Below are positions 27,290 through 41,399 of a DNA stretch of 41,399 bases, in pieces. The stretch comes from a virus. Position 1 is the stretch's first letter. Every line of letters starts with the position of its first letter. A program made the translations under genes and the position numbers. The DNA is taken from IMG/VR virus record IMGVR_UViG_3300032007_000176, positions 1 through 41,399 of that record. One strand, 5' to 3'. The notes under the pieces are model-generated. The model searched no databases. It saw nothing but the letters and a program-made list of their open reading frames with translations, and was not told the DNA's origin.

Positions 27290-27330
27290 AAAAATAAGGA
27301 GCCTCACGAACGGGGCTCCTTATTTTTATT
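27290..27330. terminator. Bidirectional intrinsic terminator between convergent genes
   Basis: AAGGAGCC (27296-27303) pairs with GGCTCCTT (27314-27321). ATTTTTATT lies on the plus side and an A-run (a T-run on the minus strand) on the other side. Confidence 0.7.
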
Positions 27331-27583
27331 CTCCACCTTCAGGTATAGGAGGCTCTTCCGGCTCCGGCTCGATAGCCCTCAGTCGCTCAATTTCTGCGTT
27401 GGCCGCATTGATGTCGTCGCGCCACTGCTGACGCTCGGCTATCTTGTCGGCATATTCCGTCTTGGTGGCCTTACCTTCCGCAATCTTGGCGGCGATATAA
27501 TCGGTGGATGACAGTTTGCCCTCGCGGTCGAGGATGATACTCTCCTGGGCGTTGATAGCCTCGTTGATTTCTGCTTGTTTCAT
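27326..27583 (-). CDS. Hypothetical coiled-coil protein
   Basis: 85-aa ORF that overlaps the RT stop by 4 nt. Confidence 0.5.
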   Translation of the reverse strand: MKQAEINEAINAQESIILDREGKLSSTDYIAAKIAEGKATKTEYADKIAERQQWRDDINAANAEIERLRAIEPEPEEPPIPEGGE

Positions 27584-28815
27584 ATTCGCTTCAATTTTAG
27601 TTTGTACTTCTTACATAATCTCTGGCGAAATGTGTGCTGGGGTTTACTGACGACGCATTGACGGCGGGTGTCCCAGTCCAACCACTGCCACCAATCATCA
27701 GCGATAGTGTCTTTCAGTTGCATGATACGCTTGTATGATGTGCGGTTCTTCAGTAGTCCTGTGTATGAGTTTACGGTCGAAATAAAACGGTCGAGTTCTC
27801 TGTATTTCTCGACCGTTGTCAGTTGGTTGTATTCTTTTATTCTCGCCAAACATCGTGCCCACGTTACATCATTCAATATCACGCTCCAGGGATGGATGTG
27901 CGAGCCGAGAAATTCCAGTCCCTTCCAGTGTTGCTGACAATAGAATTTCTTATCATTCATCCTTACGCCTTTTACAGCCAGTCTTCTGCGCAGTTCAGGC
28001 AACAGACTGAGTGCATAAGGCTTCAATCTATCGGGTACCACCATCACGCCATCGTCCATGAATACCGTGGTACGGATACCGCAATCTTCGTTGAGCCAAA
28101 TAACTTCGTCATTAATGTATAGACCCATGCCTGTTTGCGATGACATACGACCAATCGGCACACCTACGCCATCGGGTTTGTTCAGAATAGACTTTTCGGG
28201 TTTGATATGCGCATCCCAAAGATACTTGGGTGTGCGCCTCTCATAGTGCTTTGCAGGGTAACAATGAATTGCTATCATTGCCAGCCATTTCAGGAACGCC
28301 GGCATGAATACTCCATATTTTTCGGCTATCTCATCATGGAAGCGGTCTATCACGCGAATGAAGCACGACTCCATATAGTCGCAGTCGGCATTCGGGAAGA
28401 ATCCCGCCAAGTCCCACTTGATAATCCATGTCGTTTCGGTGTAGCCGTTGCTCACCTCGCAGATGTCTTCTATCACCTGGTTAATAGCTGCCTGCGAACC
28501 CATACCCTCGCGGTTGTTGAAGGTGCGCGGGTGTAGCGTCTGTTCTATCCACGGCTTCAGAATGTCACAAAGGATATGGTCAATCATACGACCGGCGAAC
28601 TCAGTGGCGAATATCTCGCGCCACTTAGGAATGGAAACGAGGAAGGTGTAGTTGTGGAGTATGCGGAACGTCCTTGCATTGAGCTCGCGCATCAAGCGAA
28701 CAAGTAGTGGTGGCCAGTTCATCTCAAAGGCCATCGAATCACGCCCGTAACGCTTGTTTTTCCGCGTGGAAAACATCACGCTGAGCAACAGCGCGAAGAA
28801 CAAAACCTCAGTCAT
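27580..28815 (-). CDS. DGR reverse transcriptase
   Basis: IPKWREIFATEFAGRMIDHIL, the PIGRMSSQ (IGxxxSQ) motif typical of DGR RTs, and an FMDD catalytic box. The gene starts 23 nt after the TR. The exact start Met is uncertain. Confidence 0.9.
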   Translation of the reverse strand: MTEVLFFALLLSVMFSTRKNKRYGRDSMAFEMNWPPLLVRLMRELNARTFRILHNYTFLVSIPKWREIFATEFAGRMIDHILCDILKPWIEQTLHPRTFNNREGMGSQAAINQVIEDICEVSNGYTETTWIIKWDLAGFFPNADCDYMESCFIRVIDRFHDEIAEKYGVFMPAFLKWLAMIAIHCYPAKHYERRTPKYLWDAHIKPEKSILNKPDGVGVPIGRMSSQTGMGLYINDEVIWLNEDCGIRTTVFMDDGVMVVPDRLKPYALSLLPELRRRLAVKGVRMNDKKFYCQQHWKGLEFLGSHIHPWSVILNDVTWARCLARIKEYNQLTTVEKYRELDRFISTVNSYTGLLKNRTSYKRIMQLKDTIADDWWQWLDWDTRRQCVVSKPQHTFRQRLCKKYKLKLKRI

Positions 28816-28837
28816 AAAAGTAAAAGCTAAATATCGA

Positions 28838-28964
28838 TAAAATCGCGACCGCCTGACAACGATTCGTGTTGTTGATGTTGTTGTTGTTGAGATTGCCGTT
28901 GTTGCCGTTGAAATTCCACGCGTTGTTGACGTTGTACCTCTGAGCGAACCAACGGTTCGTGCTG
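28838..28964 (-). repeat. DGR template repeat (TR)
   Basis: It aligns without gaps to 29545-29671 over 127 bp. All 27 differences fall at TR adenines on the coding strand. In the VR frame it encodes about 16 AAY codons. Confidence 0.9.
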
Positions 28965-29046
28965 GTCGGAGTCACATCTGATGCTGCTATACATGATAGC
29001 CGGGCTCCCTTTTACCTTATTCATATCTGACAGCCACCTCTTGTCA

Positions 29047-29460
29047 TTACTGACCGACCTGCGGCTGATCCTGACGTTTAAGCGACCGGCTCGCATTTCT
29101 CCATTTCCTTACACCTTCCTCGACACGTTCCAACTGCACGGCGATACGCAGTTTATCGCTATCAGTCAGCAGTCCCTGCGCGATACACAATTCAAAGTTA
29201 GCTAACAATATACCGAACTCACCTATCATCTCACGGATGTGTTCCTGCCTCGCCTCCTGGCATTCCTTGGCGATAGAGAAATGTCGGATGATATTCTGTA
29301 CCGCCCGCTTCATCTCTACCGGTGCGCCTTCGATGCGTTCTATCTTCGGCATCCGTTGGATGGCGGGATGTAATATATAAAGCAAGTTCTTTGCGTCAGC
29401 GAGAATGGAGTCCTTGTCATTCTTCGCCTTGTTGCCGCGCGGTTTCTTGTGTTCATTCAT
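29047..29460 (-). CDS. avd: Avd-like DGR accessory protein
   Basis: Trimmed to MNEHKKPRGNK. 137 aa, basic and predicted helical. It sits between the target gene and the TR. Confidence 0.7.
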   Translation of the reverse strand: MNEHKKPRGNKAKNDKDSILADAKNLLYILHPAIQRMPKIERIEGAPVEMKRAVQNIIRHFSIAKECQEARQEHIREMIGEFGILLANFELCIAQGLLTDSDKLRIAVQLERVEEGVRKWRNASRSLKRQDQPQVGQ

Positions 29461-29491
29461 TGTTCTAAAGAAGGATAGATTGATAGTAAGC

Positions 29492-29520
29492 CTCACGCCA
29501 CGCTGTCGCGATGGCGTGAG
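29492..29520 (-). promoter_or_regulatory. Hairpin/cruciform immediately 3' of the VR
   Basis: A perfect 9-bp inverted repeat (CTCACGCCA with TGGCGTGAG) and an 11-nt loop. It starts 13 nt after the target stop codon. No U-tract follows and there is no counterpart after the TR. Confidence 0.55.
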
Positions 29521-29532
29521 AGCATTTAGTTT

Positions 29533-30852
29533 CTAATCAATTTCTAAAAGCGCGACCGCCCGACAACGAAACGTGCCGGAGATGTAGCTGGTGCTGAGAG
29601 AGCCGTAGGAGCCGCGGAAAAACCACGCGGCGTAGACGGTGGACCTCTGAGCGAACCAACGGTACGTGCTGTTGTTCACTGCGGTAGTTCCCATCTTACT
29701 GATACTTGGCGCAAGGGCAGTGAGGGTTTCATCCTTCATCAGCATGGTGCCCTCGGCGACGCCTGGCAGATACCAGTCACCAAAGTCGAGACCATCCACA
29801 CCGAACGACTTGGTGTAGCCGTAATAGAGTGCTGGGTACTTGTACTTCGTGCCGCCTGCCTTAGTGGGAGCCGTCATGCGGGCATATTTCTCAGCCATAG
29901 CCTTGCCGCTGGGCAGTGAGAAGCATCCATACTTCTGAGGATATACCACCATGTAACACTTCTCCAGATATTCCTCGTAGGTGGCATAAGCAGCACGCAG
30001 GTTGGCGCAGAACTCGCTTGTCTCGAACTCTGACGGCTTCACGGGCACATCATTACCGGCACGTGGACCTACGGGTTCTTGCGCTGTTGGCACACGACCG
30101 CTACCTGTAGCCCATGCCTTGGTTCTGGCGATGTTCATCACACCCCAGTAGTTGGTGTAGCAGCCTCGCTCGCCGCGCCAGTACGTCGAATTTTCTGGCA
30201 TGTCACCCCATGTGATATGAGCGATAGTGCAACCTGTTGCGCTGACAATATAGAAGCGATAGTCAACACACTGATCACACTGGATGATAATCTGAGTACC
30301 GTCACTCTCCACTTTGTTTCCGTTGGCATCAGCCAGATATGCCCACCATGCCTTTATGTCGCCTACCTGCGTGGCCTTCGCAGCAACAGCGGCTGAAATT
30401 TCAGCAGCGCTTGTGGCGTTGATGGCAGCTGACGTCAGTGTTACATCTACGGTGGTATCTACGGCATAGTCAGGAGACATACGCAACTTAATAGCCAGTG
30501 TGGTGCTGCTGATAGCAGTAATGGCATACTGACAAACGTCGAGCCACTTCTGGTCGGCACCATCCTTGTGGATAATACCCACCTGTCGACCCTTACGGAA
30601 ATAGACATAACCGACGTGCGTCCATGCAGCGGGGATGTTTGCCTTCTGAATCCACACACCACCCTTCACGTAGATGATCTTGTTCTGGTCGTCAAGGAAC
30701 ACCACATCGCCAACGGTAGGCTGTGTGGTAACGACATTCACACCGTCCACGATGATTTCGCGGGTTGTCTCAATCATGCTCACCTGACTCTCGGTGATGG
30801 GCTTCACGGCTGCATCGTAGTCAGCCTTGCTGTTGTATGATTTGATAGCCAT
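29533..30852 (-). CDS. DGR target protein, putative receptor-binding tail protein
   Basis: 439 aa. The C-terminal ~42 codons are the VR (...STYRWFAQRSTVYAAWFFRGSYGSLSTSYISGTFRCRAVALLEID). The gene directly follows two fibre-like genes. Confidence 0.85.
   Translation of the reverse strand: MAIKSYNSKADYDAAVKPITESQVSMIETTREIIVDGVNVVTTQPTVGDVVFLDDQNKIIYVKGGVWIQKANIPAAWTHVGYVYFRKGRQVGIIHKDGADQKWLDVCQYAITAISSTTLAIKLRMSPDYAVDTTVDVTLTSAAINATSAAEISAAVAAKATQVGDIKAWWAYLADANGNKVESDGTQIIIQCDQCVDYRFYIVSATGCTIAHITWGDMPENSTYWRGERGCYTNYWGVMNIARTKAWATGSGRVPTAQEPVGPRAGNDVPVKPSEFETSEFCANLRAAYATYEEYLEKCYMVVYPQKYGCFSLPSGKAMAEKYARMTAPTKAGGTKYKYPALYYGYTKSFGVDGLDFGDWYLPGVAEGTMLMKDETLTALAPSISKMGTTAVNNSTYRWFAQRSTVYAAWFFRGSYGSLSTSYISGTFRCRAVALLEID
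29545..29671 (-). repeat. DGR variable repeat (VR)
   Basis: See the TR entry. The VR lies inside the 3' end of ORF 29533..30852. Confidence 0.9.
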
Positions 30853-30873
30853 AACTTTATCCTTTCTTTGTTA

Positions 30874-32547
30874 TTAATTCAACAATACCCAGTCACTGAC
30901 GGAATTTGTCACGCTGAATGCCTTGTAACACTTCTTGTTGGTTATATCCAGGTATTCCTGACCGACCATTGTGGGAACGTTTGGAGAGGCTGGCGCACCT
31001 TCACCGGTAAGGTGCATGTCCTGTCCGCACAGCTTCGGCTGTTCCTCGAAGTCGATACTTACAGCCTTGGTATTTCCGAGATTCTCCAGTTGTGCCTTCA
31101 GTCCGTCAATAGCAGCGAAGAGTACGGCGAAAGCCTGTGCCAACACCGACTGTCCTGGAGCACCGACGAAGTTGGTGGTGATATTCTTGAAGATACCCCA
31201 GCCGACTACCAATGCCGTACCTCCGCTGACAGTGGCAGTCAGTCCAGAAACGACTACCGTCATGGCTGTAGGACTCAGATAGATGTAGTAGCCTGTCGAT
31301 GGCATAGCACTCACAGCCTGACGTACCAGTGGCTCGTAGAACTGCTCACTCACCTCACGGGTGGCAGGTAGTGTGGTGTAGGTCTGTCCGGCTCTCGTCC
31401 ATCCTGTCAGCACGGGTGTGTCTCCACTCTCGTCATATACGGCGGTATAGACTAACGTCGAGTCGTAGTCAGCCGTAGCCGTTGCAGGCAGTTCAGGGTA
31501 GTCCTCGCGGTATGTGTAGATGTAGGCAATCACCTTCTGATAAGTGCGGTCCACCATTCGTGCCACCACGCTCACCGATGCCGGTACAGCCTGTGCACTC
31601 GGAATGAGCAGGATGTCGCCGGCGTTCAGTGTGATTGGTGCGCTGATGCCATAGCCGCTGGCAGATGTCTCGCCTCCGTCGGTGTTCACGTATTTATCAG
31701 CTTTCGCCTGCTGGAGCGTGATTTCACGCTCACCGTCGTACTTGCCGAACGATTTGTTGATGAATGCTACGAGGTCCTGAAGGTTGGTGATGTCAGCCAC
31801 CTTTGCGTCCACAATAGCGTCGCGCTGTTGCTCGTGCTCGTTGAAGGTGGTGTTACGTGCTGCCTCTGCCTGCTCGTAGGCTTCCTGACGTGCTGCCTGA
31901 CTCTGTACAAAGGTCTGCTGACGCTCCGCCTCCTTGGTCTCACGCTGCTGCTCCTGGTTGATGCGGGTTTGTTCGTTAGCGATGCGCTGCTGTTCAGCGG
32001 CATTGCGGTTGATTTCTGCTGATGCCCGTGCGTCTTCGGCATTTGTACGAAGCGTTTCAGCCAGTACACGAGCTTGCTCTGCTGTGACGCGGGCACTCTC
32101 GGCACTCACGCGACCTTGCTCAGCCGTAATACGCTGTTGCTCCTTGGTCTCGCGCTGACTTTCCTTCGTCACGCGCTGCTGCTCGGCACTGATGCGAGCC
32201 TGCTCTGCTTCGTTGCGCTGGTTCTCGGCTGCCATGCGCTCTGCCTCCTTCTGCTGGCGCAGTTCTTCGGCTGCCACACGCAAGGCTTCATCATTGGCAA
32301 TGGCATCGTTGAGGGCCTTGATGCGGTCGCTCTCGGCCTTAATAGATGAAAGGTCAATAATGCGGAACCACCATGCGCTGTCGCTGACGGGATGGCCTAC
32401 GTTGCCGCTCTTCAGCGAGCGATAGATGCTCAGGCCAGTAGCGTCTTGCACCACGTTGGCTAGTCCGTAGGCTGTGCTGGAAGAATAGACACCCTTCCAT
32501 GCTTCACCCACCTGGAACTTCAATTCTTGGATGTTTTCGTTTTCCAT
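30874..32547 (-). CDS. Tail fibre protein with a long repetitive coiled coil
   Basis: 557 aa. Degenerate repeats run AEQARISAEQQRVTKESQRETKEQQRITAEQGRVSAESARVTAEQARV. Confidence 0.65.
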   Translation of the reverse strand: MENENIQELKFQVGEAWKGVYSSSTAYGLANVVQDATGLSIYRSLKSGNVGHPVSDSAWWFRIIDLSSIKAESDRIKALNDAIANDEALRVAAEELRQQKEAERMAAENQRNEAEQARISAEQQRVTKESQRETKEQQRITAEQGRVSAESARVTAEQARVLAETLRTNAEDARASAEINRNAAEQQRIANEQTRINQEQQRETKEAERQQTFVQSQAARQEAYEQAEAARNTTFNEHEQQRDAIVDAKVADITNLQDLVAFINKSFGKYDGEREITLQQAKADKYVNTDGGETSASGYGISAPITLNAGDILLIPSAQAVPASVSVVARMVDRTYQKVIAYIYTYREDYPELPATATADYDSTLVYTAVYDESGDTPVLTGWTRAGQTYTTLPATREVSEQFYEPLVRQAVSAMPSTGYYIYLSPTAMTVVVSGLTATVSGGTALVVGWGIFKNITTNFVGAPGQSVLAQAFAVLFAAIDGLKAQLENLGNTKAVSIDFEEQPKLCGQDMHLTGEGAPASPNVPTMVGQEYLDITNKKCYKAFSVTNSVSDWVLLN

Positions 32548-32567
32548 ATCTTTTCGTTTTTATTGGT

Positions 32568-33242
32568 TTACAATCTGATGATCAACTCAGCCGTTTCCTC
32601 GTCGTAAATGATGCGCTGCACCTCTTGCTGAAGTCCGCGCACGGTCAGGATGCCTGTCTCTGGGTTAAACGACATCGTAGGGAACAGCATGCCACCACTC
32701 GGACCTTCGGGGCCTTGTTCGCCCTGTTCTCCTTGCGGGCCTTGTTCACCCTGTGGGCCTTGCGGACCGACGGGGCCTTGTTCACCCTGCGGGCCTTGTG
32801 GACCGACGGGGCCTGGGTCGCCCTTGTCACCCTTCGTCCAGTACGGAGGTATCTCACTCGTTACGGTGGGAGCGGTGCAACCGTCGAAGCCCAGCACCAC
32901 GTTCATCTCCACTTCCACGCCATCCACCTCTTCCTTGATGATGACCGACGTTGGCTCAATCACCTCGTCACAGATGCCGCTCTGGTAATGCTCATCGGTG
33001 AGGTAGTAGCGACGCTCCACCATGAGCGTACCGACACCAAGCTTGTGGTCGTCAAAACCGACACACAACCTTCCGTCACCATCCACCTCGCAGTTCGTGT
33101 ACTCGTGGCCGTCAAAGGTAGCCACCCATGCTTGCTTGGGGTTCGCCGTGTAGTACGTGAACTTAAACGGCACCCCGAATCCGGCATCGCTCTGTTCTAC
33201 GAGCCGGAAATCACTCTGATAGAATATCTTCTTTGTTTCCAT
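32568..33242 (-). CDS. Collagen-like repeat tail fibre protein
   Basis: A Gly-X-Y run reads [48 protein letters not shown]. It is encoded partly by a 36-bp tandem duplication at 32737-32808. Confidence 0.7.
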
Positions 33243-33252
33243 ATTCGTTCTG

Positions 33253-33561
33253 TTAAGTGGTCAGCTTGATGTACGGCTTCAGCAGGAGGTCGAAGGCGTA
33301 GGGCACAGTGTAGAGGTTCTGCGGACTGGCTGGCTCACGGTGCTGGTACGACTGTGCCACAAGCATCAGTCCTGCCTGCACCAATGCCTTCGGCACCGTG
33401 CCGTACTGTTCGAAGATGTCGGTGATGGTGCGATTGCATGTGTTCAGCACCATATCCTCAGCAGCCTCGCCGTACAACTCCAGCAGCGTTCGTTCCATCT
33501 CCACCTGATCGTCAGTGAGTCGCAGCTGCGCCTGAATCTTCTCAATCGTAAGATATTTCAT
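33253..33561 (-). CDS. gp6-like head-tail connector protein
   Basis: 102 aa. MKYLTIEKIQAQLRLTDDQVEMERTLLELYGEAAEDMV...ALVQAGLMLVAQSYQHRE matches the layout of that family. Confidence 0.65.
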   Translation of the reverse strand: MKYLTIEKIQAQLRLTDDQVEMERTLLELYGEAAEDMVLNTCNRTITDIFEQYGTVPKALVQAGLMLVAQSYQHREPASPQNLYTVPYAFDLLLKPYIKLTT

Positions 33562-33618
33562 ATTTCGATTTTTATATTTCTACATTTCGCCCGAAATTCT
33601 CCCGCAGGCTTACTGCCA

Positions 33619-33645
33619 ACAAAAAGGCCGCCAAGCGGCGGCCCC
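33619..33645 (-). terminator. Intrinsic terminator after the lysis genes
   Basis: The minus strand reads GGCCGCC-GCTT-GGCGGCC followed by TTTTTG. Confidence 0.7.
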
Positions 33646-33715
33646 AGACAAACGTTTAATTAACCTAAAAACCTAATACAAACACAAAAAACAAAGTGCG
33701 ACCCTCGCGGGCAGC

Positions 33716-34150
33716 TTATTTCTTCAGCATCTCATTGATGACCTGCCGGCGGTTCCGCCCGTCTGCGCGAAACGATACGTGCACCCAATACGAGCCTTTG
33801 GCGTTGTGCTCCCAGATGAGCTGGTCGAATTCGCAGTGCGACTGAATCCATGTGAACCACCTCCGGCCTTTCACCTTGTCGCCGTCGATGCAGAGGTCTG
33901 CAGCCTCTCCCTTCGTGTGCTGGCTACCGGCAACGCCGCCCACGGCCGCATTCAGCTTCTCGCAGCGGAACCCACTGCCTATTTTCACCTCGTGCTGCAT
34001 CGCGTCGCGCAGCGGCTGCAATACGTGGTGGCACAGAGCGCAGAGGTTCGCCACCTGCTGCGTGTTCGGCACATTCTTGATGCCGCGAGCCTTCGCCGTA
34101 TTGCTGGCCGTCAGTTCTTCCAGCGTGAAATTCTTACTCAGCATTGTCAT
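33716..34150 (-). CDS. Endolysin, peptidase M15 (zinc D-Ala-D-Ala / L-Ala-D-Glu peptidase) family
   Basis: FTLEELTASNTAKARGIKNVP...IGSGFRCEKLNAAVGGVAGSQHTKGEAADL matches the SG(F/Y)R...N...GG...S.H..G.A.D signature. Confidence 0.85.
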   Translation of the reverse strand: MTMLSKNFTLEELTASNTAKARGIKNVPNTQQVANLCALCHHVLQPLRDAMQHEVKIGSGFRCEKLNAAVGGVAGSQHTKGEAADLCIDGDKVKGRRWFTWIQSHCEFDQLIWEHNAKGSYWVHVSFRADGRNRRQVINEMLKK

Positions 34151-34568
34151 GTTTCGCTCCTTTTTTCGACTTAATTTCCCCGTCGGCAGATATGGTCACG
34201 GCCTCGCGGTCTTTGCATCCGCGACGGCCGCAGAGCAAAGGGCGCATGGCTTCCATCATACTTGTGTTTCGCGCAACCTCGCGCTGCAAGTTTCTCACTG
34301 TCTCTTCCAGCTTGTCTTGTCTGTCGCGAAGTTCCTCACGTTCCTGCCGCAAGTGCTTGCGGTCGTCCTTCAACTCTGCGATGTACTGCTTCTGTTCCTC
34401 GCGGTCTGCCTTCACATCCGCCACCATCTGCTGATAGACGTCTTGCACGTCCTTGGCCGCGTCCGCCTCAGCCTTCTTACGCTGCCATCTCCATGTAAAA
34501 AAAGCGCCTCCACCGCCTCCGATGAAGAGGCCAGCCAGCGCAATAATTGAATCGAGTGATATGTCCAT
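34134..34568 (-). CDS. Holin / spanin-like membrane protein
   Basis: Trimmed to MDISLDSIIALAGLFIGGGGGAFFTWRWQRKK, a single N-terminal TM segment, followed by a long charged coiled coil. It overlaps the endolysin start. Confidence 0.5.
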   Translation of the reverse strand: MDISLDSIIALAGLFIGGGGGAFFTWRWQRKKAEADAAKDVQDVYQQMVADVKADREEQKQYIAELKDDRKHLRQEREELRDRQDKLEETVRNLQREVARNTSMMEAMRPLLCGRRGCKDREAVTISADGEIKSKKGAKHDNAE

Positions 34569-34652
34569 TCCTTTTAGATTAAGTTCTACCCTTCGCGCGG
34601 AATGGCTGCGCGGGATTACCACAAGAAAAAGGCGAGCCGAAGCCCGCCCGCC

Positions 34653-34868
34653 TTACTTCTCCACGAAGTCAATTTTCCGTCCCAACGCATCCGCGATCCG
34701 TTGCAGCGTGTCGAGCCCGACGCTGTACCTGCCCTTCTCAATTCTCGCAATGTGAGAATCCTGTAGGCCGCACCGCTCGCCCAGTTCCTTCTGCGTCAGG
34801 TGCTGCTGCTTCCGCAGCTCTGCGATGCGCAGACCGATGCGCACACGCTCTTGCTCGTTCTTTATCAT
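34653..34868 (-). CDS. XRE-family HTH regulator (Cro-like)
   Basis: 71 aa containing LRKQQHLTQKELGERCGLQDSHIARIEKG. Confidence 0.8.
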   Translation of the reverse strand: MIKNEQERVRIGLRIAELRKQQHLTQKELGERCGLQDSHIARIEKGRYSVGLDTLQRIADALGRKIDFVEK

Positions 34869-34870
34869 AA

Positions 34871-35131
34871 TTAGTAAATCAATAAATACATATAACCGCC
34901 ACCGTCACAGAAAACTCCGCAATCGAGCTTCGATGCCTTGCACATTTCGTTAGTCTTTTTGTCGGCATGATTCTTGATTATGTCAAACTCCTCATCTGTC
35001 CATTCTCCGAGGTTCTTTTTACTCATCCGAGCCTCCCATCCTGGCACAAGGTATTTGTCGGTGTTCTTGTAAGGATGCTCCTCGCACTCGGCAATAACCT
35101 CTGCAAGTTTTTTATAAAATTCTTCGCTCAT
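34871..35131 (-). CDS. Hypothetical protein
   Basis: 86-aa ORF ending 3 nt upstream of the HTH gene start. Confidence 0.5.
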   Translation of the reverse strand: MSEEFYKKLAEVIAECEEHPYKNTDKYLVPGWEARMSKKNLGEWTDEEFDIIKNHADKKTNEMCKASKLDCGVFCDGGGYMYLLIY

Positions 35132-35137
35132 GGCTCT

Positions 35138-35290
35138 TTATTCGTATGATTGTAAGTATATGTAGTTACGCTCTCCATTCTTGTTGTGCTGATAGCATAT
35201 AAGCCTTGCACTTATCTCCTTTGTCACCGTCTGGATGAACACACCGTCACCGCTGCTGATGTCGTAGATGTTAAAAACTCGCTTTGCCAT
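35138..35290 (-). CDS. 50-aa small ORF
   Basis: Below the track cut-off. Reads MAKRVFNIYDISSGDGVFIQTVTKEISARLICYQHNKNGERNYIYLQSYE. It fills an otherwise empty gap. Confidence 0.3.
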   Translation of the reverse strand: MAKRVFNIYDISSGDGVFIQTVTKEISARLICYQHNKNGERNYIYLQSYE

Positions 35291-35303
35291 CGTTCCCTAT
35301 GAT

Positions 35304-35549
35304 TTACAATGTAATGTTATTGATGTCGTTGATGTCTTCCACGGATGAGATAACGAACCGCTGGGAAGTGTAGACGATTTCGTCTGTGATGAAGTCTGAG
35401 ATGAAGAACTCCACGGAGTTGAACATTGATGCGGTCACGCTGGCGTTCTTGGTCAGTTTCTCGATGATGGCCTTGCCTTCTTCGATGGTGTCGCAGCTGA
35501 TGATGGGGGCCGTGACGTTTGTGCGGTAGTTTAATTGATACTGTTTCAT
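35304..35549 (-). CDS. Hypothetical protein
   Basis: The track ORF is trimmed to MKQYQLNY at 35549. This start has the GGAACTATG context and does not overlap the upstream gene. Confidence 0.5.
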   Translation of the reverse strand: MKQYQLNYRTNVTAPIISCDTIEEGKAIIEKLTKNASVTASMFNSVEFFISDFITDEIVYTSQRFVISSVEDINDINNITL

Positions 35550-35562
35550 AGTTCCTTGTGAT

Positions 35563-35754
35563 TTATGCTTCCACGTAGTCAATTTCCGGGAAACGAGTGA
35601 TTAACTTGTCAAAGTCTTCCTCCGATGATATAACTTGCATCTTCTCATTACAAGTGAATGACAAGCAATTCTCCATGATAAAGTCTTCCACCTCCTGAAT
35701 GTCGAGATCAATCGAATCGAATACCTTCATGGTTTGCTTTTTCTCTTGTTTCAT
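35563..35754 (-). CDS. Hypothetical acidic protein, first gene after the early promoter
   Basis: 63-aa ORF about 50 nt downstream of the predicted transcription start. Confidence 0.5.
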   Translation of the reverse strand: MKQEKKQTMKVFDSIDLDIQEVEDFIMENCLSFTCNEKMQVISSEEDFDKLITRFPEIDYVEA

Positions 35755-35813
35755 TTTGCCGTTGCCCTTCCGGGTCTTGTGGTTTTAGTTGTTTTTTTGT
35801 TTGTTTGTCGATG

Positions 35814-35845
35814 CAAAGATATAACTTTTTTTAAATACTACCAAA
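35814..35845 (-). promoter_or_regulatory. Bacteroidota-type promoter (-33 TTTG / -7 TATCTTTG)
   Basis: On the minus strand TTTG (35845-35842) is followed by a 20-nt spacer and TATCTTTG (35821-35814). An 11-bp inverted repeat (TACCAAATATT with AATATTTGGTA, about 35839-35876) overlaps the -33 box. Confidence 0.6.
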
Positions 35846-35892
35846 TATTTAAGGAATTATTTTGCAATATTTGGTAATTTTTTCGTGAAAGC

Positions 35893-35919
35893 ACAAAAAA
35901 AGGTGCACGAAAGCACCTT
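35893..35919 (-). terminator. Intrinsic terminator (usable in both directions)
   Basis: The minus strand reads AAGGTGC-TTTCGT-GCACCTT followed by TTTTTG. On the plus strand the same hairpin is followed by ATTTTATT. Confidence 0.7.
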
Positions 35920-35922
35920 ATT

Positions 35923-36414
35923 TTATTCTACGAATATGTCGAATTGCTTCAGCAGACGTTCACAGTCGGCCTTCGTTGGTTTAACGCTCCACGGGTCTGG
36001 TATCTCAGTCTCTCGGTGTTCACTGATAATGCGCTCCAGTTCCTTGATGCGCGCGGCCTGACTGTGGTTCACCTCCATAACAGCGTCCAGCAGTTCGCGC
36101 AGGCGTGCGGTCTCGTCATTGTCGCGATATATCACCTTCTCCCTGTCGCGGTACTTCCATTTTACCACCTCTTTCTCCACTACACGGTCACGATAGACCA
36201 CGCGGTCACGGTAAATGACTCCCGTCTGTGTCTGCTGCTGACGTTGTGAACAGCCGTAATTGATGCCTCCGTTCTGGTGAATGTCGTCCACGTGGCCGTA
36301 GTTATACACCACACCGCCGTTCATGTGCAAATCCTCTACATGTCCGTTTATGTAAACAATGCCACCCGTAATGTGGAGGTCTTCAATGTGACCGTTGATA
36401 GTTCGCGATTCCAT
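35923..36414 (-). CDS. Hypothetical repeat protein
   Basis: Trimmed to MESRTING. It has three copies of NGH(I/V)(E/D)D(L/I)Hx(T/N)GG(I/V)xY, then repeated (V/I)(V/I)YRDR motifs, then a coiled coil. Confidence 0.5.
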   Translation of the reverse strand: MESRTINGHIEDLHITGGIVYINGHVEDLHMNGGVVYNYGHVDDIHQNGGINYGCSQRQQQTQTGVIYRDRVVYRDRVVEKEVVKWKYRDREKVIYRDNDETARLRELLDAVMEVNHSQAARIKELERIISEHRETEIPDPWSVKPTKADCERLLKQFDIFVE

Positions 36415-36427
36415 AATCTTACTCCTT

Positions 36428-36922
36428 TTATATTCGTGCGCGAACGAGTCGCCACACCACGCCACCGGCCAACAGCAGCAGCAGAGCTCCGCCAAGTTGC
36501 ATCCGCAACCGTTGCCACCACGTCAGCTCCGCCGGCACCTCAACCTCCACGGGATAGGGCTGCGGCACCGTGTCATGCGTCGCAACGTAGCAAGTGTCGT
36601 GCACCTGACGCTCCACATACTTCGTCTTCCAACGGTCGCGCAGCACGTACACCGTGTCGCCGGACATGAATTCCTTTACGTGCACAGAGTCGTGCAACCA
36701 AATCGAGTCCCGCTGCTGCCGCGTGATGTAGCAAGTGTCCGTCCTGACGGTCTCCACCTCCACCACTTTCGGCGTGGTGCATCCAGTCAATAATATCAAC
36801 GCCCACAACGCAATCAGTCGCGTGTCGATGCTGTTGAGCCTGTTCACATAGTCGGGCAGTGCCTCGGTGATGTCCCGCAGGCACTGCGCCTTGGTTTGTT
36901 TTAATTCGTCGAAATCTTGCAT
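36428..36922 (-). CDS. Membrane lipoprotein-like protein, unimolecular-spanin candidate
   Basis: A hydrophobic segment ends in the lipobox-like LLTGC. A second TM segment (LGGALLLLLAGGVVWRLV) sits at the extreme C terminus. Confidence 0.4.
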   Translation of the reverse strand: MQDFDELKQTKAQCLRDITEALPDYVNRLNSIDTRLIALWALILLTGCTTPKVVEVETVRTDTCYITRQQRDSIWLHDSVHVKEFMSGDTVYVLRDRWKTKYVERQVHDTCYVATHDTVPQPYPVEVEVPAELTWWQRLRMQLGGALLLLLAGGVVWRLVRARI

Positions 36923-36927
36923 AGATT

Positions 36928-37170
36928 TTACGGGTTGTAGTCCTTGATTGCTTCGAGGAATTTCTTCTTCGATTTATACACTTTGCCGTCTATCATGAAG
37001 TGGCGGACGGCACGACCGCCCTTCTTCACCATGCCATACTTGTCGCGTGGCACATGGTCGCAGAAGCCCAGCCGTCCGTCCTTGCTCATGTACGTCGTTG
37101 TGTATTCGCCTTCCATAGCCATGTGGCATGTCTCACGGAATGGTACTTTCTTCAGTTCTTCGATGGTCAT
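36928..37170 (-). CDS. Hypothetical protein
   Basis: 80-aa ORF. Confidence 0.5.
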   Translation of the reverse strand: MTIEELKKVPFRETCHMAMEGEYTTTYMSKDGRLGFCDHVPRDKYGMVKKGGRAVRHFMIDGKVYKSKKKFLEAIKDYNP

Positions 37171-37697
37171 ACGTCCGCCTCCATGTCTATTTGTCTGATG
37201 CGTTCCTCGCAGATGTGGATAATCTTCTCATAGTCCAGTCGGCGGCTGTCGCCCTGCTTGGTGCGCAGGATGCGCTTCACGATGTCAGCGTCCCACGGGT
37301 TCAGGTTGTAGTCCTGCCATATCGTCCACGGCTGGATGATGTGGCGCGAGTAGTCGCTTGCCCCACGATTGTATGAGCGTACCGACGTGTCGAGAATGCC
37401 CAGCCTGCTGAATGCGTTGTAGGTGTCCTCGTCGAGCAGTCGGCTGTTCACGGTGTCGGGGACTTGTGCCTCTTCGGGTGCTGCCTCTTGCAATTCTGCG
37501 TTATCTTCAATGATGAACATTGTGATGCCGTCCTCAGCTGTTACGACATATACGTTTTGTTTGCCGTCCCAAAATTGGAACACTACCCGCAGCGAGTGGG
37601 TGTAGTGTTTGTCTGGGTCGGCTGGTGTTGTGATGTAATCGATGGTGCCTGGCTTGATTCTCAGCAGGTCGCCAATGTTAAATGCGTATCCGTGCAT
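37167..37697 (-). CDS. DUF3310-domain protein
   Basis: Trimmed to MHGYAFNIG, which has the GGAACTATG context. The C-terminal DYSRHIIQPWTIWQDYNLNPWDADIVKRILRTKQGDSRRLDYEKIIHICEERI resembles DUF3310. Confidence 0.55.
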   Translation of the reverse strand: MHGYAFNIGDLLRIKPGTIDYITTPADPDKHYTHSLRVVFQFWDGKQNVYVVTAEDGITMFIIEDNAELQEAAPEEAQVPDTVNSRLLDEDTYNAFSRLGILDTSVRSYNRGASDYSRHIIQPWTIWQDYNLNPWDADIVKRILRTKQGDSRRLDYEKIIHICEERIRQIDMEADV

Positions 37698-37720
37698 AGT
37701 TCCTTTAATTTTCTTCGTTG

Positions 37721-37761
37721 ATAAAAAAGCGGAGAGGCACCCCGATAGATGATGCCTCTCC
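37721..37761 (-). terminator. Intrinsic terminator
   Basis: On the minus strand GGAGAGGCA pairs with TGCCTCTCC (9 bp, 13-nt loop). GCTTTTTTATC follows. Confidence 0.65.
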
Positions 37762-37830
37762 AGTGATGCGCCAGTATGCAAGGGACAAAGCCTTGCAAGT
37801 GACGACTTGGGATGCGTCCATCCCCGCGTT

Positions 37831-38184
37831 TCAATAGTTCTCGTTATGGCTGCCGTCCTCGTTGTAGCTGCTTTCAAAACTTGAAGCACTGAATGGTCGG
37901 TAGGTCAGTTCCAGTTGTCCGTCGTTGAATGCTTCGGCAAACATGTGGTACTTCCCGCAGCCGTTATATTCGGGGTCTGCCTTGTGCTTGTCGTATGCCT
38001 CGGTCAGGATCTCGCGTGACACGGCGATGATTTCATCCACCGAAGGCGTGTGGCGTTCGTCTCCGCCTTTCAGCCCGTACCACTTAACGCCCATCAATAC
38101 CATGATGGCTTGCACTCTCTCAAAGTCGAAGTCGCAAAGGATTTCATTTACCATTGCGTCTCTTTTTCTGTTGTCTTCGTTCAT
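37831..38184 (-). CDS. Hypothetical protein
   Basis: 117-aa ORF with the GGAACTATG start context. Confidence 0.55.
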   Translation of the reverse strand: MNEDNRKRDAMVNEILCDFDFERVQAIMVLMGVKWYGLKGGDERHTPSVDEIIAVSREILTEAYDKHKADPEYNGCGKYHMFAEAFNDGQLELTYRPFSASSFESSYNEDGSHNENY

Positions 38185-38223
38185 AGTTCCTTATAAATTC
38201 GTTCAATTCGTTCAATTCGTGTT

Positions 38224-38256
38224 CAAAACGAAGAGAGCCGACACCCGTCAGCCCTC
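38224..38256 (-). terminator. Intrinsic terminator abutting heptamer array C
   Basis: The minus strand reads GAGGGCUGAC-GGGU-GUCGGCUCUC (10 bp including 2 G-U pairs) followed by UUCGUUUUG. Confidence 0.55.
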
Positions 38257-38283
38257 TTACATCTTACATCTTACATCTTACAT
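38256..38283 (-). repeat. Heptamer array (ATGTAAG)x4, site C
   Basis: The plus strand reads cttacat four times in tandem. The array begins 8 nt after the stop of the HU-like gene. Confidence 0.9.
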
Positions 38284-38291
38284 CCCGAAGG

Positions 38292-38696
38292 TCATCCCTC
38301 CAGCTCTCCGCCAGTCGTACCGCCGCCCTGGTTGCCACCTTGGCCAGCGCCACCCTCGGTGATGTCCTCCTCGCCAGATGCAGCGGCAGCAGCCGTCGGG
38401 TCAACCTTCTGCCAACTCACCTCGTCGGAGAACTGGCGGCTGAACTTGGCGGCTACGGTGCAACCCAGTCGGCTCCGTCCGTTGGCAGCGTTCAGCATCT
38501 CGGCGGTTGCCACGATCGGCGCATGAGTCTCGGGGTCTTCGGTGTCCTTCACGCTCAACTGGATGTTGGGATAGACGGTCAGGAAGTTGTCGCCCAGCTG
38601 ACAGCGGAAGCCTTTCAGCACGTTGCGCTTCACGGCCTTCATGAACTCCGTCACGCAAGCCTTGGCGATTGATGGTTCAACACTCTTGCCGTCCAT
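38292..38696 (-). CDS. HU-HIG-like protein, paralogue 2 (probably extends to about 38810)
   Basis: The track ORF starts at an internal Met. The same frame is open back to 38813 and encodes (EIA)KVKYYAKENSTIGTHSFYAVPIPNGTLTFDELLDEA, a typical HU-HIG N terminus with no in-frame ATG, GTG or TTG. The tail is GGAGQGGNQGGGTTGGELEG. Confidence 0.55.
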   Translation of the reverse strand: MDGKSVEPSIAKACVTEFMKAVKRNVLKGFRCQLGDNFLTVYPNIQLSVKDTEDPETHAPIVATAEMLNAANGRSRLGCTVAAKFSRQFSDEVSWQKVDPTAAAAASGEEDITEGGAGQGGNQGGGTTGGELEG

Positions 38697-38843
38697 AGCC
38701 TCGTCCAGCAGCTCGTCAAACGTGAGCGTGCCGTTGGGGATGGGTACGGCATAGAAGGAATGAGTTCCGATAGTGGAATTCTCCTTGGCATAATACTTAA
38801 CTTTTGCTATTTCTTATCCGATTTAAAGGGTTTAACGAAATAG

Positions 38844-38902
38844 TTTACTATACTAAACCGCAGCGGTTTTGTATAGCAAACCGCAGGGCTTTACTATACT
38901 AA
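38844..38902. promoter_or_regulatory. Operator-like triple repeat
   Basis: tttactatactaaaccg (38844-60) is followed by its imperfect inverted copy cggttttgtatagcaaa (38864-80, 15 of 17 bases). A third direct copy, tttactatactaa, lies at 38890-38902. Confidence 0.45.
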
Positions 38903-38957
38903 CGTAATGCGGTCGGGGGTTTACTCGGTTGCGATGGCTGATGGATGAGGGATGGGG

Positions 38958-39362
38958 TCAGAGGTCTGCGACCATCTCTTTGACGTAGGCTTCCATCATG
39001 TCGTGGAATGAGCCAGCGAACTGCTCTTTGAACTTGATGGTGCCACCGCTTATCTCCATGTCAACGTAGCTGTTGAGAAAGCCGATGCCGTACTTCTTGC
39101 AGATGGGTCGCATTTCGTCACGGAAGGCTTGGATGCGTTCCTGAATGTTGAACACCTTGGCACGTTCCTCACGCTTGCCGTAGTCGTAGCCTTTCTTAAA
39201 ACCTTCTTTGGCAAAATGGGCTGATACACTTTCAAGCGTTGCATCGTATGGGTCACGGAAGTAACGTCTGCATCCACTCTTTATTTCTTCGCCATACTGA
39301 TTCATGGCATTCTTTGCGCCTTCAGTCATGCCGATATTGCGCTTCTTTCTTTTCTTGCTCAT
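38958..39362 (-). CDS. Hypothetical protein
   Basis: 134-aa ORF with the GGAACTATG context. Confidence 0.55.
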   Translation of the reverse strand: MSKKRKKRNIGMTEGAKNAMNQYGEEIKSGCRRYFRDPYDATLESVSAHFAKEGFKKGYDYGKREERAKVFNIQERIQAFRDEMRPICKKYGIGFLNSYVDMEISGGTIKFKEQFAGSFHDMMEAYVKEMVADL

Positions 39363-39754
39363 AGTTCCTGTAATTGTTTAAGTAAATCTTTCGTTTCCTT
39401 GATGCACCAATCGCGGTCGAGGTGCGGCCCGTCATCGAAGTGCATGGTGTCGAAACCGAACACCCAATAGCCCTTGGGTATTTCGTCGAAGTTGTCGAAG
39501 TCGATGCACTCCGTATCGTTGCGCCATCCGTCGGCCTTGATTTCCTCAATCGGCTCACCAAACGTCAGCCCGCCGTGAATGTCTATCACGTTGTTGGCTT
39601 CGTCGTAGTGCTTGCCATGAAGCGGATGCTCTGGCGGTACTGCGACGTAGCCGTTAGCATAACCCACACCGATTGAGCATCGGTGCAAAACGTCGGACTC
39701 AGCGAAACGCTTGTTTACTGAGTTGTTCAAAAATGCAAATAATCTCTTCTTCAT
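39359..39754 (-). CDS. Hypothetical protein
   Basis: 131-aa ORF with the GGAACTATG context. It contains a GYVAVPPEHPLHG...IHGGLTF...WVFGFDTMH motif block of unknown function. Confidence 0.55.
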   Translation of the reverse strand: MKKRLFAFLNNSVNKRFAESDVLHRCSIGVGYANGYVAVPPEHPLHGKHYDEANNVIDIHGGLTFGEPIEEIKADGWRNDTECIDFDNFDEIPKGYWVFGFDTMHFDDGPHLDRDWCIKETKDLLKQLQEL

Positions 39755-39760
39755 AGTTCC

Positions 39761-40024
39761 TTATTCGTATTGCTTAATCAGTCTTTGTAACTCTTGCACC
39801 CGATTCGACGTGATTGCTTGCACGAACTTGATGATTTCGTTTGGGTCGTCGTCAGGTCGGATGCGGTACTCTTCGGCAGTCCCGTCCATGAACTCAATGC
39901 GCAAACAGCCCTGCTTGAATGGCTTACTCTGCATCTTATCCATGAGGTTGGCGTGCCGTTGCATTTCCTCGACGTGCATCCGTCTGAGGAATGGCGGTAT
40001 CTCTTTTCTCTCTTCGTCAGTCAT
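39761..40024 (-). CDS. Hypothetical protein
   Basis: The track ORF is trimmed to MTDEERKEIPP. The first six track codons are the heptamer array itself. Confidence 0.5.
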   Translation of the reverse strand: MTDEERKEIPPFLRRMHVEEMQRHANLMDKMQSKPFKQGCLRIEFMDGTAEEYRIRPDDDPNEIIKFVQAITSNRVQELQRLIKQYE

Positions 40025-40026
40025 AC

Positions 40027-40124
40027 ATCTTACATCTTCCATCTTACATCATACTTGCGCCAATGGGCGCACCAGTCCCCACTCAGCGAACTTCTCGAAG
40101 CCGCCGAGGGTGTGGATGTAGAGC
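40027..40124. repeat. 98-bp direct repeat, copy B (partner at 1189..1286); includes heptamer array site B
   Basis: 95 of 98 bases match copy A. The array at 40022-40049 reads catacat, cttacat, cttccat, cttacat. Confidence 0.9.
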
Positions 40125-40234
40125 CTTGCCTGTTCCACGATGTCCTTATACGGGATGCCGTTCACGGTTTCATCACCGATGGAACACGATGCGGTCACCT
40201 GATGACCCGTGCGGATGCTCTCCAAGTAGCACCT
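40049..40234 (-). pseudogene. Remnant 3' end of a second metK-like gene
   Basis: A 61-codon open frame with no ATG reads ...IRTGHQVTASCSIGDETVNGIPYKDIVEQARLYIHTLGGFEKFAEWGLVRPLAQV. It parallels the intact MetK C terminus ...VQSGQTVTACCSIGDEHVTFQ...FADVVEMARLYILTDCNGSFETFSEWGLIRPKE. Confidence 0.6.
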
Positions 40235-40239
40235 TTAGA

Positions 40240-40260
40240 GTCCCCCGCAAATCGGGGGAC
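40240..40260. other. GC hairpin
   Basis: GTCCCCCG-caaat-CGGGGGAC, a perfect 8-bp stem with no flanking U-tract. It lies between ORF 40278..40574 and the metK remnant. Confidence 0.5.
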
Positions 40261-40277
40261 GGCTATAATGCAGGGGG

Positions 40278-40574
40278 CTAAAGTTCGATGTATTCGTGAT
40301 TAGAAATCCATTCCTGCGCCTTGGTCGTTGACTTAAAACGCTTTTGAATCTCATGCCGTTTTCCGTTGCATGTGACAACGACAAAGAAGTGTCCTTTCTC
40401 CAATTTCTTGATTTCGGCACTTTCGACCTTCATGCCTTTTGGCTTTGTCACAACCTTAACGGGTTCAACTACTGGAGCAGGCTTTGGAGCCGGTGCTGGT
40501 TTTGACTTGTACGATGCAACGTACTTTCTTGCTTCCGCTAACTTTGCGTCGGCCTTTCTCATTGATTTCTTCAT
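40278..40574 (-). CDS. Hypothetical basic protein
   Basis: 98-aa ORF with a Lys/Pro-rich N half. Confidence 0.5.
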   Translation of the reverse strand: MKKSMRKADAKLAEARKYVASYKSKPAPAPKPAPVVEPVKVVTKPKGMKVESAEIKKLEKGHFFVVVTCNGKRHEIQKRFKSTTKAQEWISNHEYIEL

Positions 40575-40603
40575 AATTCGTTTAATTAGTTAAATTCGTG
40601 TTC

Positions 40604-41399
40604 TTATTCTTTCGGTCTAATTAAGCCCCATTCGCTGAAGGTTTCAAACGAGCCGTTGCAATCGGTCAAAATGTAAAGTCTTGCCATTTCCACCACGTCG
40701 GCAAACGTCTCGGTCTCGGTCTTGCCGCTGGCATATTGGAACGTCACATGTTCGTCACCAATCGAACAGCAAGCCGTCACCGTCTGCCCAGATTGCACAG
40801 CCTTCAGGAATGCGACGATATTGATAGAAACATCTCCCTTTGAGAGATCCTTTCCCATCAAGCCACCTCCTGTTACTCCCTCGCCAAGGTCGCTTCCAAG
40901 TTTCCTGTTAGTCGCTCCGCTGTCCGTGTTCGGTCCGCCCGTCCACTCGCCCAGGGGATTGATGATGGGCAGGTGGATGCCGTAGGCGTTCTTCAGATGC
41001 TCACGCAGTTCCGGTTCCTGCTCACGGCTCAGATGGCTTTGGCAGATGGTGACGTCGAACTCCGGCGCAGCCAGTCGGCCTTTGCCCTGGATGATGTACT
41101 TGCCGTCGAACGGGTGCCTGTCGTAGATGCTTGCGGCAATGGCCGTCAGCAGCTTCTGCTCATGCGTCGGGGGCACACCACGAAAAATTCCGTTATCACC
41201 ACATCTCACCCCATGCTGCTGATTGGCAGCCAGGTGAATGTCTTGCGGCACGATGAGCGCACGCGTCTCGATGCCCTCACCGGCAATGCGGCTCACGATG
41301 GCCTCGATGTCCTCCGCGCTGATCCGCTCGCTCGTTTCCACTTGGATGTTGCACTCGCCGTGACCGATGAGCACCTCACAGGCCACCTTCGGGTTGGCT
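40604..41399 (-). CDS. metK: S-adenosylmethionine synthetase (compact MetK-like), C-terminal part, continuing into 472..1
   Basis: INPLGEWTGGPNTDSGATNRKLGSDLGEGVTGGGLMGKDLSKGDVS parallels E. coli MetK [30 protein letters not shown]...GGGAFSGKDPSKVDRS. Confidence 0.8.
   Translation of the reverse strand, partial: ANPKVACEVLIGHGECNIQVETSERISAEDIEAIVSRIAGEGIETRALIVPQDIHLAANQQHGVRCGDNGIFRGVPPTHEQKLLTAIAASIYDRHPFDGKYIIQGKGRLAAPEFDVTICQSHLSREQEPELREHLKNAYGIHLPIINPLGEWTGGPNTDSGATNRKLGSDLGEGVTGGGLMGKDLSKGDVSINIVAFLKAVQSGQTVTACCSIGDEHVTFQYASGKTETETFADVVEMARLYILTDCNGSFETFSEWGLIRPKE
41083..41399. repeat. Terminal direct repeat, copy 2 of 2
   Basis: Identical to 1..317. Confidence 0.9.

Follow-up and report, generated by a model that had tools for sequence, protein, structure and literature searches.

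The phage genome in IMG/VR virus record IMGVR_UViG_3300032007_000176 (positions 1 to 41,399; this whole stretch of 41,399 nucleotides is referred to here as the window) carries a direct repeat in which the 3' end of a metK gene is followed by a tandem array of seven-base units. A repeat search of the window found two copies, copy A at 1183-1286 and copy B at 40021-40124, which are 104 nt long and 96% (100/104) identical; a chance origin for such a repeat within 41 kb is far too improbable. Read on the minus strand, either copy runs ...LYIHTLGGFEKFAEWGLVRPLAQV, TGA, then ATGTAAG-type heptamers. Base-by-base comparison places two of the four mismatches in the heptamer array and the other two, both synonymous, at third codon positions in metK, and the longest exact match shared by the copies is 45 nt. 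The ends of the window overlap by 317 nt (1-317 = 41083-41399); the molecule is therefore a 41,082-bp circle, on which the two copies lie 2,244 bp apart across the end junction, with a methyltransferase gene, a divergent metK and a small gene, orf98, between them. A preliminary description of this DNA had noted 98-nt direct repeats with metK 3' ends around an orf98-metK-dcm block of about 2.2 kb; the 98-nt core sits within the 104-nt repeat, and the layout stands with the exact distance given above and the name dcm corrected below. Every gene near the repeats is on the minus strand, in the order terS, terL, orfA (copy A) with its array, methyltransferase, metK, orf98, hairpin, metK remnant (copy B) with its array, and orf87. 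"B-type" denotes a metK allele that ends exactly in the remnant sequence and is then followed by the array. The features at the two repeats are:

1183-1286, minus strand: repeat copy A, with the last 24 B-type metK codons (1214-1285), TGA (1211-1213) and array, reaching the ATG of the methyltransferase gene
1189-1216, minus strand: (ATGTAAG)x4 array after copy A (Tandem Repeats Finder), followed by the ATTT-ATG of the methyltransferase gene
1211-1351, minus strand: orfA, a chimeric open reading frame (ORF) of 46 aa; codons 1-22 are the 5' end of a gene here called geneX, codons 23-46 the metK tail
1-472, minus strand: 5' part of metK, the gene continuing across the circle junction
40604-41082, minus strand: 3' part of metK, with Pfam, TIGR, PHROG and PDB matches
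40604-40913, minus strand: A-type metK 3' third (about codons 215-316), sharing about 60-70% identity with B-type and bounded on the left by a sharp homologous crossover at nt ~641
40234-40281, minus strand: RE, AGCCCCCTGCATTATAGCC-GTCCCCCGATTTGCGGGGGAC-TCTAAAG, with a hairpin at 40240-40260; a recurrent right-hand boundary of inserted cargo
40049-40233, minus strand: displaced B-type metK 3' end, 60 codons and stop, no start codon; 96-98% identical to gene ends in L020/L101, L133 and L154
40021-40124, minus strand: repeat copy B, with the same 24 B-type metK codons, stop (40049-40051) and array, reaching the ATG of orf87
40024-40054, minus strand: ATGTAAG-type array after copy B, one unit being ATGGAAG (Tandem Repeats Finder), followed by the ATGT-ATG of orf87

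The metK gene between the copies encodes 316 aa (compared with about 384 for MetK), has its start codon at 470-472 and spans the circle junction. It scores 31.4 bits against PF00438 (cut-off 33.1) and 33.8 bits against TIGR01034 (cut-off 309), matches phrog_1569, and finds S-adenosylmethionine (SAM) synthetases in the PDB at E = 1.8e-6, with the HPDKxADRI and GGPxxDxGxTxRK...GKDxxKxDxS motifs aligned; judged by these matches, it is clearly a short, divergent MetK homologue. The phage metK family is a frequent one, with at least 592 loci in IMG/VR.

The origin of copy B can be read from intact relatives of this gene. Loci and contigs compared with the window are given L numbers, and the hotspot was assessed on 23 loci from metagenomes and about 20 from IMG/VR. 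In IMG/VR, a 30-mer taken from the repeat matches contigs with a full-length B-type metK and array (L020/L101, L019), and further intact B-type genes are found in L133, L154, L153 and L135 as well as in L194/L205. Along the window metK, the profile of identity to these genes stays at 95-100% up to nt ~641 (window ~40914) and then falls sharply to 60-70%; homology to the intact genes returns at window 40233, directly after RE. A foreign block has therefore overwritten the B-type metK from nt 641. In this block (window 40913-40234) lie the A-type metK 3' third, orf98 and the hairpin arm RE. On the left it is bounded by a homologous crossover within the conserved GEWTGGPNTDSGA core; on the right, RE was joined without homology to B-type codon 246 (RE|GGTGCTA). 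The event cost the B-type gene about 31 codons and displaced its last 61, together with the array, downstream as a dead remnant. An insertion of a clean 584 bp between adjacent nucleotides, as the ends of BLAST high-scoring segment pairs would have it, is ruled out by the same profile. The preliminary description had correctly recognized an ATG-less metK remnant of 61 codons (reading frame 40049-40231, with homology to intact genes beginning at 40233) and had called it a paralogue of the intact gene; it is not a paralogue that arose here, being instead the end of the B-type allele, which is intact in L020/L101, L133, L154 and L194/L205. Remnants retain the open frame and show few substitutions, with slightly more amino-acid changes (E11Q, Q34R, E50L) than the intact genes (only L42I).

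The block and its remnant (window 40966..40020) are present at 90-97% identity in L167, L170 and L173, behind differing metK 5' parts, and L166 carries the block only as far as window 40077. The otherwise unrelated L199 (ENA ERZ27256887 k141_2899601) shares a stretch of 2.6 kb at 99% identity (L199 8770-11367 against window 41255..38658), which indicates recent horizontal exchange. Since block and remnant are common to otherwise different phages at 90-99% identity, they move as a unit, and the remnant, in travelling with the block, is available as a homology arm on its right. L194/L205 have metK (B tail)-array-orf87 in uninterrupted order.

Copy A has another history. The preliminary description saw the metK tail fused to an unrelated N terminus of 22 aa in the 46-aa ORF at 1211-1351, and this holds: the N terminus comes from geneX, a conserved 76-aa gene with a weak DUF5681 match. 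GeneX is intact in L012 and L015, and in L015 it follows terL, as its 5' end does in the window; the 5' part alone is present in L005, where the contig ends within the gene, and in L124, where the C-terminus is altered. The remainder of geneX is absent from the window. The join within orfA, CCGGTG|CTCTAC (i.e., ...GATACGCCGGTG|CTCTACATC...), shows microhomology of 3-5 nt at most, and copy A is therefore an illegitimate fusion. The gene order in L205 (geneX ... NUMOD4/HNH_3 gene - metK with B tail - array - orf87) is a plausible ancestor of the copy-A arrangement. The sequence GGTGCT is found at both left junctions; this is a coincidence, each copy being native to its own source gene.

The allele of copy A (GGA, GCG) is also found in L146, with a different downstream gene, and that of copy B (GGC, GCT) in L140/L145; because each is found elsewhere with other partners, a simple duplication in situ is not favoured, and the two copies probably stem from different members of a pool present in the population. 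Such a tandem duplication, in which misaligned arrays, through slippage or unequal crossing-over, would have doubled a metK-array unit, one copy then decaying to a 24-codon stub and the other being partly overwritten, is unlikely. Tandem metK-derived segments do occur in L124 and L139 and a duplicated orf87 module in L198, and arrays stand at several sites where they could misalign; however, the copies differ at 4 of 104 positions, copy B lies inside a block common to unrelated phages and was probably imported with its remnant, and the fusion of the left edge of copy A to another gene would be left unexplained.

The junction formed by tail and array is reused across the relatives, which number about 60 contigs. 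At least 11 different sequences follow it, among them the terminator-like hairpin, orf87, two other methyltransferase genes and several ORFs; upstream of the array are full metK genes, 61-codon remnants, or stubs of 38, 28, 24 or 10 codons (the last in L149 and L152), and array plus terminator is found with 8 different left-hand partners. In L170, L167, L161, L132 and L146 the array marks the point where homology to the window changes over. A second cassette bracketed by direct repeats is present in L139, where two copies of tail and array lie 1,066 bp apart around another cargo. The pattern of substitute end, cargo and displaced end recurs on a 10-codon scale in L152/L166, where the cargo is an HNH endonuclease, and L135 and L153 have an intact HU-like gene, a cargo, and then an HU-like copy interrupted by an LE'/RE element, with the same 3' part and array. 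Genes of the NUMOD4/HNH_3 (I-HmuI-like) type are found at these junctions or beside them in L137, L149/L152, L166, L192/L199 and L194/L205; in L199 the gene is directly upstream of metK, at the position that the methyltransferase gene has in the window. The encoded proteins have 197 aa in L199 and 180 aa in L149. The relatives could have shown the same two repeats without any variation in cassettes; they show abundant polymorphism at exactly these junctions. Of the earlier suggestion that the repeats are the scar of cassette replacement or duplication at a recombination hotspot, replacement and hotspot are thus upheld by partner switching in the relatives; duplication is not favoured, and the copies have separate histories.

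In our reading, the two repeats are probably independently derived leftovers of a portable unit, the B-type metK 3' end plus array, which is a heavily reused module junction. Their histories differ: copy B is a displaced 3' end within a mobile block, and copy A is the product of deletion or illegitimate fusion. Exchange would take place between co-infecting phages, anchored on one side by homology in the conserved metK core or in tail and array, and closed on the other by an array-level or microhomology join, that is, by one-sided, homology-facilitated illegitimate recombination; double-strand breaks made by NUMOD4/HNH_3 homing endonucleases sited at the junctions probably stimulate it. Recombination between copies A and B (104 bp, 96%) could excise the 2,244-bp methyltransferase-metK-orf98 block. 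So read, the locus gives a base-pair view of how cargo of an anti-restriction or epigenetic kind (a putative DNA methyltransferase and a putative SAM synthetase) is swapped among gut and rumen phages, with a coding tail and a seven-base array as the portable junction and displaced gene ends left behind by one-sided homologous recombination. It predicts that a 2,244-bp circle is excised, that homing endonucleases cut the B-type metK tail, and that the arrays act as frame-independent stop/start linkers.

Several observations weigh against this reading. The deletion product, geneX'::tail-array-orf87, was found neither in the 23 metagenome loci, nor in 10 orf87 contexts, nor in an IMG/VR junction scan, and no circle junction of an excised block was found; the earlier expectation that homologous recombination between the copies would cleanly delete the block is a reasonable prediction whose product did not appear in the loci scanned. 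No NUMOD4/HNH_3 endonuclease is present in the window, so that the case for endonuclease involvement is one of association in the relatives; the sole HNH gene of the window (5406-5921), a few genes upstream of the terminase genes, may be packaging-associated. No promoter-like site was detected at any array by a sigma-70-type scan, Bacteroidetes-type promoters being outside its coverage, and the hairpin after the third array of the window (described below) fails the T-tract rule of a simple terminator scan. The relatives are metagenomic, and many are short contigs that are possibly chimeric at repeats; several key junctions recur in independent assemblies. Finally, the geneX::tail junction is seen in this window alone, with no independent assembly, and the history of copy A has consequently been read from more distant relatives, with TerL at 40-74% identity; deletion or acquisition may have come first, and either order fits.

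The copy-A junction is also where an assembly artefact could be suspected, namely a circular contig misjoined through the repeat so that the copies were never on one molecule. Exact look-ups of the 46-aa and 53-aa forms of orfA returned no record, the 24-mer across the junction is absent from IMG/VR, and an exact look-up of TerL returned one 3.3-kb contig, which ends 41 nt short of the junction; metagenome assemblers can misjoin at repeats. We nevertheless hold an artefact to be extremely unlikely. The copies differ at four sites and share no more than 45 exact bases, under the usual final k-mers. The two sides of the geneX::tail join have almost no sequence in common; it is therefore not an assembler join and must exist in the reads. 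The copy-B side and the circle junction are corroborated by three independent assemblies: independent contigs span the circle junction and the entire copy-B side (L145/L165, at 99.8% over window 165..38378, and L192/L199, at 99.0%), and a further independent contig, L170, corroborates copy B.

Arrays of the same kind are not confined to metK tails, as a third array in the window illustrates:

38224-38284, minus strand: third array (38255-38284) and terminator-like hairpin AGGGCTGACGGGTGTCGGCTCTCTT-CGTTTT, 3' of an HU-like gene (Tandem Repeats Finder, fold)

The hairpin after this array folds with z = -3.5. Gene stop, (ATGTAAG)2-6 and AGGGCTGACGGGTGTCGGCTCTCTT-CGTTTT make up the canonical junction element in this phage group, mostly 3' of the HU-like gene; the heptamer copy number ranges from 2 to 6 among relatives, and (GTGAAGA)n takes the same position in some of them. 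All 79 array instances in the fetched loci are directly behind a stop codon or gene end, as are the arrays at L021:655-700 and L135 2310-2350, and the junction from array to methyltransferase gene is found in L161 behind the end of the HU-like gene. The array units place TAA and ATG in each of the three frames; we therefore infer that the arrays are a tolerant linker at gene boundaries, whose stops and starts let modules join there without polar damage. If they prove to be general linkers, this would help to account for module shuffling in Bacteroidales phages.

The conservation of the arrays might be taken instead as a sign of a selected functional element, the unit, or the hairpin TGCGCC-CATT-GGCGCA plus array, being retained as a signal for RNA stability or termination and for translation (re)initiation, in which case orfA or the remnant could be real small genes. 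Strong conservation, a position always between a stop codon and either the hairpin or the next ATG, the unpaired state of the arrays in predicted folds and the existence of the 10-codon stubs with array all fit this view, which we nonetheless consider quite improbable: arrays are found in the same positions behind the end of the HU-like gene, without a metK tail; the 108-nt unit of tail and array folds no more stably than shuffled sequences (z = -1.0 and -0.7); and tail lengths vary (10, 24, 28, 38 and 61 codons), as is expected of recombination tracts. The short ORFs, whose conservation as genuine genes would have spoken for selection, are not conserved as such; the remnant is without a start codon, and orfA, its 22 N-terminal amino acids taken from geneX, is found nowhere but in the window.

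RE is a solo arm in the window. In relatives it is paired with an inverted left arm, LE (pairs were found in L124, L132, L139, L007 and L180); LE and RE make up an imperfect inverted repeat, about 48 nt per arm, with a duplex energy of -60.7 kcal/mol, a GC hairpin in each, and fixed outer ends (GTTTTGAG... and ...CTCTAAA). The cargo between them is orf98, ORF90, a Dam methyltransferase, ORF84, or nothing, and in L137 an HNH endonuclease gene also ends in RE, with no LE found there. LE and RE substitute for the middles of genes (metK, the HU-like gene and a beta-clamp-like gene) with no target duplication, and the right flank of RE shows a weak preference, (G/C)(G/T)(T/G)G. Rfam covariance models gave no match at gathering score in the window, L101, L124, L106 or L135, the matches being at chance level (E up to 5); a group I intron or other ribozyme was rejected for RE and LE on this ground and because the flanking "exons" are non-contiguous, with the gene middle gone, and there is no tRNA.

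Imperfect inverted repeats with fixed outer ends around five different cargos or none, an HNH endonuclease as one of these cargos, and the weak flank preference could suggest a dedicated mobile cassette, either a transposon-like element bounded by LE and RE or an integron-like site-specific system using the arrays. We regard this as very improbable: no transposase or integrase adjoins any LE/RE copy examined, the window has a solo RE, gene middles are replaced without a clean insertion, and the direct repeats here are metK tail and not element ends. A broader proposal, to which we would give a minor chance, is that Bacteroidales phages possess a dedicated system for exchanging cassettes, made up of the arrays and the LE/RE arms, with the 104-bp repeats as its footprints; if true, this would be a new class of endonuclease-mobilised, hairpin-ended cassettes that use displaced 3' gene ends as homology arms. 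The locus in any case draws attention to the uncharacterised, hairpin-armed LE/RE cassette.

Seen beside known systems, the locus is an unusually clear case of ordinary phage mosaicism, and its closest analogue is linker shuffling of the kind known from the promoter-early stem-loops (PeSLs) of T4-type phages, conserved intergenic elements that combine a stem-loop terminator with a strong sigma-70 promoter and at which modules are swapped and mini-circles form (Arbiol et al., 2010, PMC2839356; Comeau et al., 2014, PMC4122927). In both, a short conserved motif recurs in the plastic part of the genome, between a stop and the next start, the end-points of indels and replacements fall in the motif, and exchange between nearby copies is expected to release small circles, as has been shown for PeSLs and is a prediction here. 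Here, however, a 7-nt tandem array takes the place of that motif, in some cases with a hairpin (in the window, after the third array only), no sigma-70-type promoter was detected, the repeat includes 72 nt of coding sequence, and the phage is of another type, with a 41-kb siphovirus-like genome and hosts that are probably Bacteroidales. To our knowledge, PeSL-type promoter/terminator cassettes have not been described in phages of Bacteroidales.

Free-standing homing endonuclease genes, such as seg and mob of T-even phages and the I-HmuI family, cause co-conversion of flanking sequence. The relatives are similar in that NUMOD4/HNH_3 genes adjoin metK or its tail, that near-identical B-type tails in tracts of 10-61 codons are grafted on divergent metK bodies, and that arrangements with and without the endonuclease gene are otherwise 99% identical (L199 against the window); the window differs in having no such gene, its cargo being methyltransferase, metK and orf98. 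Homology-facilitated illegitimate recombination in natural transformation reportedly combines one homologous anchor with one microhomology join. Copy B, with a homologous crossover (nt 641) and a non-homologous join (RE|GGTGCTA), and copy A, with a microhomology join and tail/array homology on the other side, both resemble this, except that the exchange here would be between co-infecting phage genomes and not with transforming DNA.

When e14 or phage 21 integrates into icd of E. coli, an integrase acts on att cores at both ends, the 3' end of the gene is replaced and a pseudo-3' end is displaced. Here too an incoming substitute 3' end keeps the gene intact and the original end is left downstream as a dead remnant; in contrast, the substitute end here is only ~60-70% identical, and A-type and B-type ends are without an identical core. 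Integration of the icd/e14 type was rejected: there is no att-like core, and Pfam and PHROG scans of the ten ORFs that make up the block and its flanks (window 1..3344 and 38292..41082) detected no recombinase. The variable and template repeats of a diversity-generating retroelement were likewise rejected as an identity for the two copies: the four mismatches (plus strand: A/C, A/C, C/A and T/G) show no adenine specificity, whichever copy is read as the template, and we could not identify a reverse transcriptase among 30 ORFs scanned against PHROGs or ten against Pfam. Integron attC sites were also considered and fail on their defining features.

The genes that the repeats bracket or adjoin are:

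506-1186, minus strand: putative DNA methyltransferase, 226 aa (phrog_757, E = 2e-49)
39761-40024, minus strand: orf87 (MTDEERK...), downstream of copy B, a very widespread single-gene module
40278-40574, minus strand: orf98, of a conserved small protein family (65 clusters, 46-99% identity)
1395-3344, minus strand: terL, terminase large subunit gene, the upstream neighbour of orfA

The methyltransferase gene had been labelled dcm: its PHROG match supports a DNA methyltransferase, and no Pfam, NCBIfam or PDB match does. It is a single-gene module, with homology to other contigs running from the start codon to just past the stop, or on into metK. Homology of orf87 starts in the preceding array or no more than a few bases from the start codon, and extends to just beyond the stop codon; the exact orf87 protein is present in 300 index blocks of public assemblies. 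In L198 (7297-9690) a module of orf87, a 70-aa and a 162-aa gene is duplicated in tandem, another sign of unequal recombination in the region. For orf98, we found no Pfam, PHROG, NCBIfam or PDB sequence match. Its predicted fold (AlphaFold, pLDDT 75) has an N-terminal helix, a Pro/Lys linker and a beta-beta-beta-alpha domain, for which Foldseek found nothing below E = 0.09 in the PDB and a weak resemblance only, to double-stranded RNA-binding domains; RE follows each orf98 copy that was traced through to its 3' side. A non-exhaustive PHROG scan of 20 upstream ORFs found no single-strand annealing protein; the same scan identified an HNH endonuclease, primase, single-stranded DNA-binding protein, head maturation protease, major head and major tail proteins.

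This phage group probably infects Bacteroidales (Bacteroidales/Alistipes), with relatives from rumen and gut samples. The assignment is based on two short contigs of metagenome-assembled genomes, the HU-HIG-type gene, and the lack of any Shine-Dalgarno-like sequence ahead of those gene starts that were examined, as would fit a Bacteroidota host. GenBank phages, searched by blastn with both window ends, gave only short metK and methyltransferase matches at 68-82% identity, and no close relative. A motif, AATTCGTTC / CACGAATTGAACGAATT, is found just upstream of two gene starts (38196-38220 and 40575-40596), and a conserved AAGGAACTATG context at many gene starts in the relatives examined.

The HU-HIG-like gene (38292-38830, minus strand) has its probable start upstream of the listed ATG (AKVKYYAKENS...), the window having ATA at ~38812 where relatives have ATG. 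A 23-nt repeat (x2.6) is located at 38844-38902, and the non-coding stretch just downstream (window 38836..38814) is shared with relatives. Elsewhere in the window, the 224-aa protein encoded at 32568-33242 contains a collagen-like Gly-X-Y tract, which explains the 9/18/27/36-nt repeats at 32700-32840; a 22-nt tandem repeat (x2.7) is found between genes at 17682-17740, and a direct repeat of 127 nt and 79% identity (28838-28964 and 29545-29671) involves two neighbouring ORFs in the 28.8-30.9 kb region.

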